From the IMG/VR virus record IMGVR_UViG_3300042866_001263: 64,000 nucleotides of DNA; one strand, written 5' to 3'. This document shows, piece by piece, positions 9,151-32,080 of the stretch. The notes below the pieces were generated by a model. The model was not told where the DNA came from. It did not search any database and was given only the letters and a program-made list of their open reading frames with translations. Numbering within the stretch: position 1 is the stretch's first letter; each line of letters starts with the position of its first letter. Source of the stretch: a virus (taxonomy: Duplodnaviria > Caudoviricetes). The position numbers were made by a program, and so were the translations under genes.

Positions 9151-9413
9151 ACTCAGATCCACACGGCAATTGGTGCGTTTACTATTGTAAAAAAACTGAC
9201 ACTACTGCATGGAGCGTAATGAAATTACGACGTAGTGATGGTGTCATCGTATCAGCAAAAACTTATAATGATGCTTTTAAATTTGTCAAATATCAAGATG
9301 CATTTGATTTTGTTAGACAACTAATTACAGAAGAACCAGAACCAAAATATGATGCAACTGTAAAGAGAATTTGTCTTGCCAGAGAAGATGCTTTTTATCT
9401 TTCAGAAAATTAA
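9147..9413 (+). CDS. hypothetical protein
   Basis: Coupled ORF with ATGA overlap. Confidence 0.65.
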   Translation: MNSDPHGNWCVYYCKKTDTTAWSVMKLRRSDGVIVSAKTYNDAFKFVKYQDAFDFVRQLITEEPEPKYDATVKRICLAREDAFYLSEN

Positions 9414-9415
9414 AC

Positions 9416-9447
9416 TGTATTCAAATTTACAAAGTTTGTATTATAAT
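9416..9447 (+). promoter_or_regulatory. NtcA box (TGTA-N8-TACA) overlapping the -35 region of a sigma70 promoter
   Basis: TGTATTCAAATTTACA 9416-9431; TATAAT 9442-9447. Confidence 0.7.
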
Positions 9448-9455
9448 TAGATATA

Positions 9456-9678
9456 CGTTCATTCGCTATTTCCAAATAGCGAACGGAAGTAAGACAACTC
9501 GGAACGGGTCGTTCATCTATGGAGACACTCATTCTCACATGCTTACAAGCACACTTGATTGCTGGGAGAGTTAATAAACAAGACATTCCCAGGCAAGCAA
9601 AGAATGATTTGATATGGGAGATCAAACAGATATCTCCAAAGGAGTGTAAGATAGACGCAAAGGTTGACTGAAGGAACG
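9456..9678 (+). ncRNA. tandem glutamine-riboswitch-like aptamers (glnA / Downstream-peptide family)
   Basis: Two CGTTC...GAACG P1 helices (9456-9506, 9510-9678), GGAAGTAAG and GACTGAAGGAACG core motifs, P2 hairpins. Confidence 0.75.
9519..9671 (+). CDS. 50-aa ORF nested inside the second aptamer
   Basis: METLILTCLQAHLIAGRVNKQDIPRQAKNDLIWEIKQISPKECKIDAKVD. Confidence 0.55.
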   Translation: METLILTCLQAHLIAGRVNKQDIPRQAKNDLIWEIKQISPKECKIDAKVD

Positions 9679-9711
9679 CTCTTTAACCTAAACAACTAAG
9701 GAGAACCTCCC

Positions 9712-9861
9712 ATGTCACAAGCAACATATCGTGGTGTTCAATATGACACCGAAACAAAAAGAGAACAACTAGCAGCAAACTGGCTTCCAGTTATCCAAAA
9801 ACAAATTGAAAAACAGAATAAATTAAAAGAGGCACAACTTGCCATGGCGATGAAAATGTGA
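9712..9861 (+). CDS. DUF4278-like (YRG motif) peptide, 49 aa
   Basis: MSQATYRGVQYDT...; AAGGAG RBS at 9698-9703. Confidence 0.75.
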   Translation: MSQATYRGVQYDTETKREQLAANWLPVIQKQIEKQNKLKEAQLAMAMKM

Positions 9862-9873
9862 TATAATATATTT

Positions 9874-9915
9874 CCGTGTGAAGGAAGTGATGGGGAGGCG
9901 AAAGTCTCCCCTTTT
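9874..9915 (+). ncRNA. candidate ~42-nt sRNA ending in a terminator
   Basis: TTGCCA(9839)-17-TATAAT(9862); hairpin GGGGAGGC-GAAA-GTCTCCCC-TTTT 9892-9915. Confidence 0.45.
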
Positions 9916-9928
9916 ATTTTGATAAAAA

Positions 9929-10474
9929 ATGAATTTTATACATCATCTAAAAGAAGCCTATCCAAAATCATCTTGCGAAAAGATGATAGAAATATTTGAC
10001 CAGAACAGTCCTTTCGCTGTAAGAGGAACTGCTGGAAAAGAATACCTTGATGACTTAGAATTAACTTTAGAAATTACAGATGCAGATTGCTATTCTGGAC
10101 TGGGAACAGCAGTTTATAAAGCAGTTGATGAATATAAAATTGTGTATCCATTAATCAATACTCACATCTCAAACTGGAAAGTAAATCCATATTGTCAGCT
10201 GATGAGATATGAACCTAACAATTATTATAGTAGGATACATTGTGAGAATGATGGAACCCCAGAATTCTCGACAAGAGTTTTTGCTTGGATGATCTATTTG
10301 AATGACATCCGAGAGGGAGGAGGAACACATTTCGTTTATCAAAATTTTACAGCACAACCAGTAGCAGGAGATCTTTATATTTGGCCTGCTCACTGGACGC
10401 ACTTTCATCATGGAGTTAATGCTCCATATGAAAAAAAGTATATTATAACTGGTTGGGTTGATTATGTGTTATAA
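9929..10474 (+). CDS. 2OG-Fe(II) oxygenase
   Basis: HxE...RVFAWMIYLND...GGGTHF...HFHHG...KYIITGW. Confidence 0.9.
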   Translation: MNFIHHLKEAYPKSSCEKMIEIFDQNSPFAVRGTAGKEYLDDLELTLEITDADCYSGLGTAVYKAVDEYKIVYPLINTHISNWKVNPYCQLMRYEPNNYYSRIHCENDGTPEFSTRVFAWMIYLNDIREGGGTHFVYQNFTAQPVAGDLYIWPAHWTHFHHGVNAPYEKKYIITGWVDYVL

Positions 10475-28871: not shown

Positions 28872-28943
28872 GGGAGTGTCGCCTATGGGTTAAGGCCATC
28901 GCCTTATAAGCGGTAGAACTGGGTTCAAGTCCCAGCATTCCCA
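28872..28943 (+). tRNA. tRNA-Ile(TAT)
   Basis: Cloverleaf; anticodon TAT at 28905-28907. Confidence 0.85.
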
Positions 28944-28995
28944 TTAGTTAGAGCAGTCGTATAAATAGTATTGATCTAACTAACTAATTAAAAAA

Positions 28996-29373
28996 ATGAT
29001 TGGTAAGTGTGTAACCTGCGAAAAAGAGTTCAAGTATATGCCGTCACAATCGACAGGTAAATACTGCTCTCGCAAATGTCAGCAAGACAACCAAGATCGT
29101 AAATATATTACAGAATGGTTGAACGGCACAAAATCTGGTATAATAAGGGGTAACTCACTCTCTGGTTATGTTAGAAGGCATTTGCTAGAAGAAGCAGAAT
29201 ACAAGTGCTCTCAGTGTAGTTGGTCTGGTGTTAATCCAGTTTCTGGTAATACAACATTAGAAATTGACCACATCGATGGCAATAGAAAAAATGCCAGTAA
29301 AGACAATCTTAGAGTATTATGTCCTAACTGTCATTCGCTAACGCCCACTTATCGAGCATTAAACATCAAGTAG
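28996..29373 (+). mobile_element. free-standing HNH (homing) endonuclease gene inside the tRNA cluster
   Basis: CxxC...LEIDHIDG.R.N...NLRVLCPNCH; own TATAAATA at 28960. Confidence 0.88.
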
Positions 29374-29445
29374 CTCCTTTAGCAATCTGGCGAATGCACC
29401 GAACTCATAATTCGGCTAAGGTGGGTTCGATCCCCTCAAGGAGCA
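29373..29445 (+). tRNA. tRNA-Met(CAT), elongator-type (Ile2 not excluded)
   Basis: GCTCCTT/AAGGAGC acceptor stem; CTCATAA loop. Confidence 0.85.
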
Positions 29446-29450
29446 CCTAC

Positions 29451-29523
29451 GCCCGTGTAGTCCAGCGGAAGAGACAGAGGACTTAAAATCCTTCCAGGGT
29501 CGGTTCGAATCCGACCACGGGCA
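29451..29523 (+). tRNA. tRNA-Leu(TAA) with short variable loop
   Basis: GCCCGTG/CACGGGC acceptor stem; CTTAAAA loop. Confidence 0.85.
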
Positions 29524-29567
29524 TTCCTGTGTAAATAGTAACAGGAAATTTTGAGAGATCAAATGTA

Positions 29568-29849
29568 ATGACAACAATTAAGTACACCATCACTCGAAAG
29601 CATGTCTTTGTTGACAACGAACCAGTGTTGATGTATTATATTGAAAATATGCCATTCGCATTTGATCTTTTAGATCAAGATGAAAAACATGACAAATGGA
29701 TTTTGGCTGAAGCAGCACTAAATCAAGAATATACTATGGAAGATATCTTCCGTTATTCTGACTATCTTATCGCTGAAGAATGCCACCCAGTTTTGTTTGA
29801 ATTGCCCTTAGTTAATCCTGAAGTTTTGCCAGATGAACCAGTTTCTTGA
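29568..29849 (+). CDS. hypothetical protein
   Basis: 93-aa ORF after TAAATA at 29532. Confidence 0.7.
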   Translation: MTTIKYTITRKHVFVDNEPVLMYYIENMPFAFDLLDQDEKHDKWILAEAALNQEYTMEDIFRYSDYLIAEECHPVLFELPLVNPEVLPDEPVS

Positions 29850-30357
29850 ATACCTTGAAGGCACCTTTGCTAACAAACATCAAGCACAGTCTCATCCTAC
29901 TCGTTATGCTCACATTCGTGTAAGTCATCGTCGTATTGGTGAGAAACGGTTTTATGGTGAACAGGCATATAACTATCTTCTAAATAACCCATATCGTCAG
30001 TTTGTAATTGACGTTGAGGTTGAGAAGGGGCAATTTCGTCTCAAAAATTATGAGATTGAAGATCCTAAACGTTTTGCGGAATGTAAAGATCTCGAACTCA
30101 TTACGGACGACATCTTGACATATCGCCAGGGTTGCGATATAATTATTACACAGACTGGACCAGAAATGTTCCAGGGTGGTACATCTACTTGTGAGTGTTG
30201 GGTTGATTGGCAAGGCATAAAAACCTATGTTCAAAATGAAGTCACACTCACAAAAGATGAATACCATGTAGTTGATAAAGGACTACATGCTGAAACCCAC
30301 GAAAAGATTTGGGGTTCCGATTGGGGAGCGTTCAAATTTGTTAGAATGCCCTTGTAG
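29833..30357 (+). CDS. cpeT: T-type phycobiliprotein lyase (CpcT/CpeT family)
   Basis: LEGTFANKHQAQSHP..YAHI, EQAY, PYRQ, GCD, WGS..GAFKF. Confidence 0.85.
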   Translation: MNQFLEYLEGTFANKHQAQSHPTRYAHIRVSHRRIGEKRFYGEQAYNYLLNNPYRQFVIDVEVEKGQFRLKNYEIEDPKRFAECKDLELITDDILTYRQGCDIIITQTGPEMFQGGTSTCECWVDWQGIKTYVQNEVTLTKDEYHVVDKGLHAETHEKIWGSDWGAFKFVRMPL

Positions 30358-30419
30358 CTCAGTGGTAGAGCAGCGGTTTTGTAAACCGCTGGTCGTCTGT
30401 TCGAATCAGATCGGGGGCT
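30348..30419 (+). tRNA. tRNA-Thr(TGT)
   Basis: Cloverleaf; anticodon at 30380-30382. Confidence 0.9.
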
Positions 30420-30587
30420 CTTGAAAGGACTGGAAATATTCGGTTCTTTCTCGAAATCCTAAGTTTTCTTAGGTCGGGGATTTGATCACCCCCGCTCGTA
30501 GGAACCAAAACCTCTCCTTGGTCTTAGTATTCTGTGTCCAAGTGAAGTAAAGAGGGGGGCTTAAGGTGATGCTCCCCCCTCCTACCA
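30420..30587 (+). ncRNA. structured non-tRNA RNA between tRNA-Thr and tRNA-Ala
   Basis: Five or six helices identified by eye; ends in CCA. Confidence 0.5.
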
Positions 30588-30590
30588 TTA

Positions 30591-30663
30591 GGGGAATTAG
30601 CTCAGTTGGTAGAGCACCTGCTTTGCAAGCAGGCTGTCAGGAGTTCGAGTCTCCTATTCTCCA
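30591..30663 (+). tRNA. tRNA-Ala(TGC)
   Basis: GGGGAATTAGCTCAG...; anticodon at 30624-30626. Confidence 0.95.
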
Positions 30664-30682
30664 TGAGTTTACTATAACTCTT

Positions 30683-30838
30683 ATGTCTCTCATTTCAAAA
30701 CCTGACCGAGATCTCGCCATCGAGGCGCTAGATTTTTACCTTTTCAATAAACAGTATGACATCAGTGAAACAAAAAGAATGGAAATCAACGCCCTTCTTA
30801 ATTGGCTCAAACTGGAAAATTTCAAACATGAAAATTAA
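30683..30838 (+). CDS. hypothetical protein (51 aa)
   Basis: MSLISKPDRDLAIEAL...; start trimmed from the track ORF. Confidence 0.6.
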   Translation: MSLISKPDRDLAIEALDFYLFNKQYDISETKRMEINALLNWLKLENFKHEN

Positions 30839-30998
30839 TCTCTGGTATTGCGTTGAAATGAAGCAATGGCGCTGGTCTCTTACAGATGATCATCGTCCGA
30901 TTGTTCGCCAAGAAAGCGGACAACGACCACATCTACGTGATGCTATGAATGACATAGCAAATACTGTAGAATATATGATGGACAGTCAACAGTCCTGA
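30828..30998 (+). CDS. hypothetical protein (56 aa)
   Basis: MKINLWYCVEMKQWRW...; start trimmed. Confidence 0.6.
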   Translation: MKINLWYCVEMKQWRWSLTDDHRPIVRQESGQRPHLRDAMNDIANTVEYMMDSQQS

Positions 30999-31006
30999 TT
31001 TTTCAT

Positions 31007-31078
31007 TCCCCTATAGCTCAACGGCAGAGCAGAGAGCTGTTAACTCTAAGGTTCCTCGTTCGAATCGAGGTGGGGGAG
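31007..31078 (+). tRNA. tRNA-Asn(GTT)
   Basis: Cloverleaf; anticodon at 31039-31041. Confidence 0.9.
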
Positions 31079-31081
31079 TTT

Positions 31082-31163
31082 GGGTAGGTGTCCGAGTGGT
31101 TAATGGAAACGGACTGTAAATCCGTCGGCTCCGCCTTCGGGGGTTCGAATCCCTCCCTGCCCA
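31082..31163 (+). tRNA. tRNA-Tyr(GTA)
   Basis: Long variable arm; anticodon at 31116-31118. Confidence 0.92.
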
Positions 31164-31350
31164 TATAAATATACACACAATGGTGAACATCATGTCTAAC
31201 TTCAGCAAGCAAATTGAGATTAAGATTAGCGATTGCCGCCAGGATATCGCCAAATCCCTCCTGCTTGCTAATATGTAACAATCGATACATAAGCAAGATT
31301 TATCAGGGGGGCAGTTGACAAAACCGCCCCCCTATTTTATTGTAGATACA

Positions 31351-31385
31351 TCGGTGGGGGATCCACCACGGTGGGGGATCCACCA
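31351..31385. repeat. tandem 17/18-bp palindromic repeat
   Basis: CGGTGGGGGATCCACCA followed by CGGTGGGGGATCCCACCA. Confidence 0.85.
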
Positions 31386-31408
31386 GCACCTTGAAAATTT
31401 AATCTCAT

Positions 31409-31481
31409 GGGTCTGTAACTCAGTTGGTAGAGTAGCGGGCTTTTAACCTGTAAGTCGTCGGTTCGAGCCCGACCAGACCCA
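31409..31481 (+). tRNA. tRNA-Lys(TTT)
   Basis: Cloverleaf; anticodon at 31442-31444. Confidence 0.92.
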
Positions 31482-31484
31482 TTT

Positions 31485-31556
31485 GACCCTATAGTGAAGC
31501 GGTTATCACGCCACCCTGTCACGGTGGTATCACGAGTTCAAATCTCGTTAGGGTCG
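31485..31556 (+). tRNA. tRNA-Asp(GTC)
   Basis: Cloverleaf; anticodon at 31518-31520. Confidence 0.92.
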
Positions 31557-31604
31557 TTGCTACGCTGCCTGTGGAGTGCCCCTCTTTGGCGGTTGTAGCA
31601 TCAA

Positions 31605-31676
31605 GTTCCTATCGACTAGCGGTTAGGTCACCACCCTTTCAAGGTGGCAGCACGGGTTCGAATCCCGTTAGGAATA
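31605..31676 (+). tRNA. tRNA-Glu(TTC)
   Basis: Cloverleaf; anticodon at 31638-31640. Confidence 0.92.
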
Positions 31677-31680
31677 CTAT

Positions 31681-31752
31681 GGAACCGTAGCTCAGCGGTA
31701 GAGCACTCGGCTGATAACCGAGCGGTCACAAGTTCAAATCTTGTCGGTTCCA
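31681..31752 (+). tRNA. tRNA-Ile(GAT)
   Basis: Cloverleaf; anticodon at 31713-31715. Confidence 0.92.
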
Positions 31753-31756
31753 CCTT

Positions 31757-31843
31757 GGAAGATTGGCTGAGAGGTCTAAAGCAACGGTTTGCTAAACCGT
31801 CGAAGGATTAATCCTTCCGTTGGTTCGAATCCAACATCTTCCG
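31757..31843 (+). tRNA. tRNA-Ser(GCT)
   Basis: Long variable arm; anticodon at 31791-31793. Confidence 0.92.
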
Positions 31844-31845
31844 TA

Positions 31846-31926
31846 GGACTCCAGCAATGTGCTTGCTAGGATATAAAAGACTGACGCCTCCCTCTGCAGA
31901 AAGAGTAACCATCAGGTCAGCGTCCA
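31846..31926 (+). ncRNA. structured ~80-nt spacer RNA between tRNA-Ser and tRNA-Gln
   Basis: GGAC/GTCC closing helix, two internal arms, ends GTCCA. Confidence 0.45.
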
Positions 31927-31931
31927 TGTAA

Positions 31932-32003
31932 TCTGAGGTCGCCAAGTGGTAAGGCAGCGGGTTTTGGTCCCGCTATTCGTGGGTTCGAATCCTACTCTCA
32001 GAA
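31932..32003 (+). tRNA. tRNA-Gln(TTG)
   Basis: Cloverleaf; anticodon at 31964-31966. Confidence 0.9.
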
Positions 32004-32006
32004 CCT

Positions 32007-32080
32007 ACTCTCTTAGCTCAGTGGATTAGAGCACTTGACTACGGATCAAGGTGTCGTAGGTTCAAATCCTACAGAGAGTG
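32007..32080 (+). tRNA. tRNA-Arg(ACG)
   Basis: Cloverleaf; anticodon at 32041-32043. Confidence 0.9.

Follow-up and report, generated by a model that had tools for sequence, protein, structure and literature searches.

The stretch analysed here, 64,000 nucleotides of the virus record IMGVR_UViG_3300042866_001263 (below, the window), belongs to a T4-like cyanophage (Kyanoviridae), whose closest cultured relatives near the site of interest are the freshwater and estuarine Synechococcus phages DSL-LC03, DSL-LC02, S-SRM01 and S-CREM1. Between positions 9454 and 9678 its plus strand carries two tandem aptamers of the type 1 glutamine riboswitch (glnA RNA), and the P2 helix of the second one encloses an open reading frame (ORF) of 50 codons which, judged by sequence comparison, is a genuine protein-coding gene (9519-9671). 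In aptamer 1, CGTTC (9456-9460) pairs with GAACG (9502-9506) to form P1, and P2 is a short hairpin. Three bases further on CGTTCA TCTAT follows, and about 130 bases later come ATAGA and CGCAAAGGTTGACTGAAGGAACG, with the end at 9678. The features of this tandem are listed below.

9454-9510, plus strand: aptamer 1, glutamine riboswitch type 1 (glnA RNA; Rfam RF01739, 34.4 bits, E = 1.2e-5)
9510-9678, plus strand: aptamer 2, both halves of which match insert-free second aptamers, with a 130-nt insert in the P2 loop
9516-9520, plus strand: 5' strand of the P2 base helix, TCTAT, pairing with 9651-9655 and including the A and T of the start codon
9519-9671, plus strand: nested gene, 50 amino acids, with ATG at 9519-9521, TGA at 9669-9671, Cys8 and Cys43
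9525-9530, plus strand: 5' strand of a second P2 helix, ACACTC, pairing with GAGTGT at 9642-9647
9642-9647, plus strand: 3' strand of the second P2 helix, GAGTGT, in codons Glu42-Cys43
9651-9655, plus strand: 3' strand of the P2 base helix, ATAGA, within codons Ile45-Asp46
9656-9673, plus strand: core of aptamer 2, CGCAAAGGTTGACTGAAG, which the ORF reads as Ala-Lys-Val-Asp-stop (TGA 9669-9671)

The initial annotation of this locus, made from the letters alone, had placed the ATG in the 5' strand of P2, with TCTA (9516-9519) pairing with TAGA (9652-9655). This proved correct, and with the T9520-A9651 pair the helix comes to five base pairs. The coordinates given there for ACACTC and GAGTGT were right as well, and the ORF does fill the aptamer insert, open for 50 codons and with two cysteines (residues 8 and 43). 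The stop codon had been described as a part of the conserved core; indeed, TGA 9669-9671 falls within GACTGAAG (9666-9673).

In order to assess the coding character of the insert, we compared it with its homologues. The protein search returned 151 matching clusters at E <= 0.01; almost every one has a length of exactly 50 residues, and a Pfam domain occurs in none of them. At the DNA level, three scans of viral contigs with protein seeds, together with the window and three phage records, yielded 100 distinct ORFs, 99 of which are intact; the only one with an internal stop (locus L174, 1501-1668; TAA at codon 21) is possibly a pseudogene or an assembly error. The homologous ORFs are 47, 49, 50, 51, 55, 59 or 60 codons long, which means that every insertion or deletion is in frame. 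Within the 50-codon class (codons 6-41) the mean column entropy is 0.40, 0.15 and 0.91 at the first, second and third codon position, respectively. The median pairwise ratio of nonsynonymous to synonymous substitution (dN/dS; Nei-Gojobori, NG86) is about 0.19, and the pooled nonsynonymous to synonymous ratio (pN/pS) amounts to 0.27 in frame, versus 0.87 and 1.96 in the shifted frames. Thus, homologous inserts do keep the frame and the amino-acid sequence, a point on which the initial annotation had made its proposal depend. In the first 46 distinct 169-nt units, each sequence has about 3.8 stops in the two other plus-strand frames, and no minus-strand frame is consistently open among the homologues (46 distinct units). 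Two antisense ORFs of the window, 9543-9695 and 9410-9625, were rejected since their frames are not kept open in homologues.

No Shine-Dalgarno sequence of the nested gene's own was found when the upstream region was inspected. From about -20 to the ATG there is aptamer sequence only, namely the 3' strand of aptamer-1 P1, the 3-nt linker and the 5' strand of aptamer-2 P1, and the initiation region also takes in aptamer-2 P2. Two freshwater metatranscriptomes contain contigs of 136-159 nt, about 12-14% different, that cover most of the ORF and the core; these contigs come from relatives and say nothing on transcription or translation of the window phage itself.

Aptamer 2 was not called in the Rfam scan of the window, because the insert breaks it, and its identity is based on covariation and on comparison with insert-free orthologues. 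The second aptamer of S-CREM1 has an ordinary short P2 hairpin, no insert, and is annotated as a part of the glnA riboswitch. The flanks of the insert in the window, CGTTCA (9510-9515) and CGCAAA..GACTGAAGGAACG (9656-9678), equal the S-CREM1 sequence at all conserved positions outside P2, and we therefore regard the element as a second aptamer with an insert in its P2 loop. As in RF01739, P2 begins directly after CGUUCA and ends directly before a CG(G/C)AA junction, and the 3' core GAAGGAACG is present (9670-9678), invariant save for rare TAA/TGA variants. The conserved RF01739 junction ACGGAAGUA is not matched, as aptamer 2 reads ACGCAAAG; since all insert-free second aptamers share this deviation, it appears to be a feature of the subtype and not a sign of decay. 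The RF01739 gathering score is 35, which neither the insert-free S-CREM1 orthologue (33.5) nor aptamer 1 (34.4) reaches, and aptamer 2 of the window gives no hit. Each aptamer alone may be regarded as a putative glutamine binder.

The two aptamers show complementary deficits. Aptamer 1 (9456-9506) has CGGAAGTA but only C, and no GAAG, before GGAACG, while aptamer 2 (9510-9678) has GAAGGAACG but CGCAAA in place of CGGAAGTA; the same pattern occurs in insert-free tandems. In addition, GAACG-GGT-CGTTC (9502-9514) could form a strand-swap hairpin joining both P1 helices.

Conservation and covariation indicate that aptamer 2 is still under selection to close around the gene, with P1, the P2 base and the 3' core either kept or covarying. 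P1 (CGTTC 9510-9514 with GAACG 9674-9678) is invariant in every set examined (65 units; 34 diverse units). The P2 base was analysed in 119 distinct units anchored at the CGUUCA and CG(C/G)AA junctions, because MAFFT misaligned the P2 5' strand across subfamilies. Base pairs 1 to 5 are formed in 100, 100, 100, 97 and 92% of these units, by sequence sets as different as UCUAU/AUAGA, UCCC/GGGA, UCUCAU/AUGGGA, UCCUC/GAGGA, UCCUU/AAGGA, UUCUU/GAGAA and GCUA/UAGC, with U-A, C-G, A-U and G-U as the compensatory pair types. None of 2000 partner shuffles reached the observed pairing, and slid partners scored far lower. Moreover, the residue that the P2 3' strand encodes before Asp changes along with the helix and can be I, W, E, R or K. 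The second helix, ACACUC/GAGUGU, is paired in about 90% of cells, versus 21-63% with the partner slid, and one of its pairs shows C-G to U-A changes, this pairing being confounded by amino-acid conservation.

Over the 3' core, which homologous ORFs read as Asp-Ala-Lys-Ala/Val-Asp-stop, nearly all third codon positions are invariant (46 distinct sequences), unlike in the rest of the gene. When 60 native units were folded with the insert present, the pairs of P1 had a ViennaRNA probability of 0.79 and those of the P2 base one of 0.70. Native inserts folded somewhat more stably than the same inserts after resampling of their synonymous codons (mean z -1.6). RNAalifold placed scattered helices within the insert in the first 46-sequence set; in two wider sets it retained only P1, a local hairpin of 2-3 bp and, in the last set, a short hairpin in the 3' core. 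Taken together, we are highly confident that a real gene lies within a selected aptamer.

This layout is, by sequence, widespread among cyanophages. We scanned viral contigs for the tandem-aptamer junction and obtained at least 119 stretches, the following counts being those among the matches listed. The second aptamer is short in at least 52 and long (167-224 nt) in at least 47; two of the remaining matches are incomplete, and 18 have no aptamer 3' half within 300 nt and are mostly chance-like occurrences in unrelated sequence. All 47 long second aptamers contain an intact ORF whose ATG is always in the P2 5' strand. Across the 112 distinct units re-extracted from contig loci, the ATG stands without exception 9-12 nt after the first base of CGTTCA, and the stop codon is in the aptamer core in 109. 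The position of the ATG is fixed although the N-termini vary in length by as much as 12 residues. Marine and freshwater phages have the arrangement in common, even though their nested proteins have drifted apart to about 35% identity. Among isolates, nesting occurs in P-SSM2 (PCMG_00321, "predicted protein"), P-SSM5, Syn19 (Syn19_187), S-SSM7 (SSSM7_289), S-H38 and ACG-2014i/j, and the P-SSM2 and Syn19 sequences were read directly and show the same nesting.

Two loci depart from the pattern. At locus L308 (3001-3144) the nested ORF ends at a TAG in the P2 3' strand (GCUA/UAGC helix) and not in the core; aptamer 1 of this locus is fully canonical (CGGAAGTAGG...GAAGGAACG). Locus L013 (1501-1653) has a natural deletion in which the nested ORF is kept (ending in TAA), while the 3' strand of aptamer-2 P1 and the whole downstream gene are gone and the sequence continues straight into the terminator region.

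As for the nested protein itself, it is, on profile similarity, probably a divergent member of the family phrog_504, from a freshwater branch. The window ORF matches this PHROG family only weakly (E 0.0051, 17.5 bits, 43 of 50 residues), and marine ORFs nested in the same position match it at E 1e-18 to 3e-5. The members Syn19_187 and SSSM7_289 are annotated as "T4-LIKE GC: 430". Exactly two cysteines, 31-40 residues apart, are present in each of 119 distinct nested ORFs. AlphaFold2 (29-row alignment) predicts a helical hairpin, with helices at residues 2-20 and 25-38 and a short tail, at a mean predicted local distance difference test score (pLDDT) of 85.8. The Pfam scan of the protein gave no domain and no signal of a nuclease or maturase family, the fold search of the model against the PDB found nothing at E <= 0.001, a two-helix hairpin being too generic, and the ESM Atlas look-up yielded no usable hit. 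The complex predicted with the product of the downstream gene scored 0.02, a value that says nothing on binding either way.

A profile search of 1.8 billion representatives returned 58 relatives, nearly all of 46-60 residues, and none lies within a larger protein, except for two long repetitive sequences which we take to be spurious. Some homologues are free-standing, with no aptamer halves around them: at L175 (122-265) the gene is coupled to its upstream neighbour by a TAATG overlap, at L304 (3001-3147) it lies between an HNH endonuclease gene and an unannotated gene of 189 residues, with a DNA methylase gene beyond and a ribonucleotide reductase gene nearby, and at L307 (2603-2761) it stands within a row of small phage genes. 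Since such homologues exist, the nested protein must have a function of its own for which the riboswitch is not required.

The gene downstream of the tandem, and the signals that surround the whole unit, are as follows.

9416-9431, plus strand: TGTA-N8-TACA box, NtcA-like by sequence, read directly, with its end 10 nt before the -10 hexamer
9420-9447, plus strand: predicted sigma-70-like promoter, TTCAAA-16-TATAAT, with the TATAAT hexamer at 9442-9447
9679-9685, plus strand: candidate anti-Shine-Dalgarno sequence CTCTTTA, abutting P1, complementary to AAGGAG by inspection and conserved in orthologues
9698-9703, plus strand: Shine-Dalgarno sequence AAGGAG of the YRG gene, for which a local GGAG/CTCC hairpin is predicted
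9712-9861, plus strand: YRG gene, 49 amino acids, presumed to be regulated, which opens with a YRG motif and has a putatively DUF4278/IF17-like N-terminus fused to a helical tail
9892-9919, plus strand: intrinsic terminator closing the unit, with its hairpin at 9892-9911

The TATAAT-like hexamer is conserved in four phage orthologues, and the predicted transcript would start at about 9453-9455, directly at aptamer 1. A GTA-N8-TAC box is seen at locus L021 too, and none is obvious in L013 or P-SSM2. Of 81 loci, 79 have a YRG ORF downstream of the nested one. The product of the YRG ORF in the window matches phrog_545 and phrog_5049, and DUF4278 in Pfam at an E of 0.05, which is below the cut-off. 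This protein is modular: in the window (9712-9861) and in S-CREM1 the YRG N-terminus is fused to an NWL...AQL helix, and in DSL-LC02, DSL-LC03 and S-SRM01 a small ORF of its own encodes the helix, the YRG part having a second YRG repeat (L002, 831-1051; L001, 859-1100). Elsewhere around the unit, a strong promoter-like site is present at 9839-9867, within the end of the YRG ORF and just before the terminator; its sequence, TTGCCA-17-TATAAT, has 11 of 12 matches and a TG. The next gene (9929-10474) encodes a 2-oxoglutarate-Fe(II) oxygenase family protein (PF13640, E 1.9e-9), and 14 transfer RNA genes are clustered on the plus strand at 28872-32080 of the window.

In the type 1 glutamine riboswitch, glutamine binding turns on translation of gifB/DUF4278 genes (PMC6212724), probably because the ribosome-binding site is released from a stretch adjoining P1 (PMC6212724). 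CTCTTTA at 9679-9685 is a candidate for such a stretch, as it can pair with AAGGAG (9698-9703) in the manner of an anti-Shine-Dalgarno sequence, like in the gifB model of PMC6212724.

The start codon of the nested gene lies in the P2 5' strand and its stop in the core, and because of this its translation and the folding of aptamer 2 should be mutually exclusive on one RNA. The initial annotation had proposed this exclusion; its structural premise is borne out by 119 distinct units, in which the P2 base covaries, and a ribosome on the nested ORF and a folded aptamer 2 would then exclude each other on physical grounds. It had further suggested that ribosome transit could reset or gate the switch, or that the switch could toggle between two peptides. 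Gating or reciprocal control of the YRG gene may be a consequence. Initiation at the nested ATG would be possible only before the 3' half of aptamer 2, about 130 nt further on, has been transcribed, or while the aptamers stay open, for instance when glutamine is low. Folding stabilised by glutamine would shut the nested gene while opening the YRG gene, as in gifB. On reaching TGA 9669-9671, a terminating ribosome would sit over the 3' strand of P1 and the anti-Shine-Dalgarno-like stretch and so would reset aptamer 2 at each passage. We lean slightly towards such an arrangement, in which one sensor has opposite outputs for two small proteins and ribosome transit acts as the reset. In its fullest form this would be a ribosome-gated riboswitch with two outputs, in which glutamine selects which small protein is made from one short phage transcript: the two-cysteine protein from the unfolded RNA, and the YRG protein from the locked one with the ATG hidden, each ribosome passage erasing the state of aptamer 2. 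Taken as a whole, we consider this version unlikely, though worth stating.

Several points weigh against reciprocal control of this kind. The free-standing homologues show that the protein works without a complete switch, and L013 keeps the nested ORF with neither the P1 3' strand nor the YRG gene. A single ancestral insertion could account for the constant position of the ATG. By terminating on the anti-Shine-Dalgarno-like stretch, a ribosome might switch the YRG gene on and not oppose it. It is sequence comparison that supports translation of the nested ORF. Aptamer 2 has CGCAAA where the consensus is CGGAAGUA, and its insert-free form scores just below the Rfam cut-off; because of this departure and this score, independent glutamine binding by aptamer 2 is only putative. 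Finally, no conserved RNA fold was found by RNAalifold in the middle of the insert in two wider unit alignments.

A second nested ORF bears on the same question. P2 of aptamer 1 likewise holds an ORF, of 66-72 codons and with a hydrophobic N-terminus, in about 43 of the 169 related loci and also in Syn19, where it is Syn19_186, "T4-LIKE GC: 936" (L302, 259-459). Three further examples are given below.

L017, 1245-1448: ORF nested in aptamer 1
L055, 1246-1449: ORF nested in aptamer 1
L092, 1253-1450: ORF nested in aptamer 1

Its ATG lies in or beside the P2 5' strand (UCCUAU/AUAGGA; UCUCAC/GUGAGA), and its product has exactly two cysteines, 36-37 residues apart. Homology between the families nested in aptamer 1 and aptamer 2 was not detectable (hhalign probability 0.6%), and the aptamer-1 ORF has no PHROG match. 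Its codon periodicity was weak in a quick test, and its AlphaFold2 model (pLDDT 57.9) is uninformative. The recurrence in aptamer 1 makes the theme broader than a single ORF.

The observations may also be explained by a small gene that has settled in a permissive P2 loop of a crowded genome and uses the strong promoter there. In that case both elements would work, and their overlap would bring only the interference that cannot be avoided, with no role in regulation. Glutamine aptamers differ in the length and the sequence of their P2 loops, roughly half of the tandem switches are insert-free (52 short versus 47 long, among the matches listed), and the unrelated-looking ORF in P2 of aptamer 1 looks as if P2 were a general landing site. 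L013, where the nested ORF has outlived the P1 3' strand and the YRG gene, fits this explanation as well, and so do the homologues standing among ordinary phage genes, which show the protein to be independent of the riboswitch and so leave this explanation open. However, a gene of this kind could start at any point of the loop with its own ribosome-binding site. The nested gene, in contrast, invariably has its ATG within the base helix of P2, lacks a Shine-Dalgarno sequence and ends in the core. Moreover, the ATG has stayed in the helix while the N-terminus changed in length, and the whole arrangement has persisted across marine and freshwater phages in spite of the divergence of their nested proteins. 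Such a settlement is the main alternative, but we think it rather improbable.

Far less probable is that only aptamer 1 works and that aptamer 2 is a decayed duplicate flanking the first downstream gene. It would agree with the lack of an Rfam call and with the J2/3 junction, which departs from the consensus. The glnA alignment of Weinberg et al. (PMC2864571) takes in aptamer 1 alone, both for P-SSM2 and for similar scaffolds from the ocean, and leaves the nested gene together with the second aptamer half as an unaligned 3' flank (PMC2864571); the glnA.sto file of Weinberg 2010 thus implicitly treats what follows aptamer 1 as flank. However, in 119 distinct units the two halves of aptamer 2 either stay invariant or change in concert, nearly all third codon positions over the 3' core are frozen, and insert-free second aptamers share the same core. 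A relic would not keep compensatory pairs across a gene of 130-190 nt.

That the insert is not translated at all, being a structured RNA expansion of P2 whose open frame is a by-product of RNA constraints, is hardly credible: the somewhat better folding of native inserts (mean z -1.6) and the lack of a Shine-Dalgarno sequence would suit it, but strong three-base periodicity and low dN/dS are found in this frame only, RNAalifold finds no conserved helix in mid-insert, insertions and deletions are whole codons, and homologues occur outside any riboswitch.

The nested ORF may be compared with several known systems. Classical leader peptides, and mgtL in the Mg2+-sensing mgtA leader of Salmonella, are short ORFs in ligand-responsive leaders in which the position of the ribosome picks the RNA structure. 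In leaders of the trpL, ermCL and mgtL type it is the act of translation that matters and the peptide is dispensable, with no conservation as a protein; the ORF usually has fewer than 30 codons, with sensing codons enriched. Unlike these, the nested ORF encodes a product that purifying selection maintains, whose fold is predicted with confidence and which has free-standing homologues, and the ORF lies in the aptamer and not in the expression platform. A regulatory leader peptide is disfavoured by dN/dS (about 0.19), the confident fold prediction and the free-standing homologues. This result lowers the case for leader-peptide identity, and not the case for an effect of translation on the RNA fold.

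Group I and group II introns carry ORFs for homing endonucleases and maturases in peripheral loops of an RNA that must still close. The nested gene likewise sits in a loop of a structured RNA that still closes around it. In contrast to the introns, its host RNA is a ligand sensor, not a ribozyme, and the ORF overlaps the conserved core at both ends. An intron-encoded ORF was rejected, as the Rfam scan of the window gave no intron family and the protein has no Pfam domain. Dual-function RNAs such as RNAIII/hld, SgrS/SgrT and SR1/SR1P combine a structured regulator with a small protein, mostly in separate segments. The nested coding region differs from them in being enclosed by the sensing domain. 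Yfr6 of cyanobacteria, mentioned in PMC2864571, is another RNA of this kind.

The closest likeness is to the tandem glnA RNA that precedes gifB/DUF4278 genes (PMC2864571; PMC6212724). Common to both are P1 CGUUC/GAACG, P2 directly after CGUUCA and the 3' core GAAGGAACG, and also the tandem layout and a candidate anti-Shine-Dalgarno sequence beside P1; the downstream YRG gene is possibly DUF4278-like as well. Unlike in the known tandem RNA, P2 of aptamer 2 in the window holds a whole protein gene and not a short hairpin, J2/3 reads CGCAAA, and the Rfam model cannot span the insert. The phrog_504 proteins of P-SSM2, Syn19 and S-SSM7 probably belong to the same family as the window protein and occupy the same nested position, and their records call them plain hypothetical proteins with no mention of a riboswitch. 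Full-text literature searches gave no description of an ORF inside a glutamine aptamer, though a mention may be contained in Ames & Breaker 2011. Thus, both the riboswitch and the phrog_504 family were already known, and the novelty is the nesting of a gene of the latter in the former.

Riboswitch aptamers are usually treated as non-coding, and models and search tools assume that they are. The locus shows that split aptamers with long coding inserts are being overlooked. Its bases bear the marks of two kinds of selection at once: the middle of the gene shows codon periodicity, and the ends show frozen synonymous sites and compensatory pairs. This makes the locus a natural system for competition between ribosome and ligand over one RNA, which can be tested in cultured phage-host pairs (P-SSM2, Syn19, S-SSM7, DSL-LC02/03 and S-SRM01). 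It also suggests that cyanophages tune the nitrogen control of their hosts via two small proteins made from one sensor. If the ribosome-gated switch with two outputs is true, the nested protein would act on the same host target, the control of glutamine synthetase, in the opposite sense, and, with the ORF in P2 of aptamer 1 as well, the gene inside an aptamer would be a designed module of the cyanophage take-over of nitrogen.

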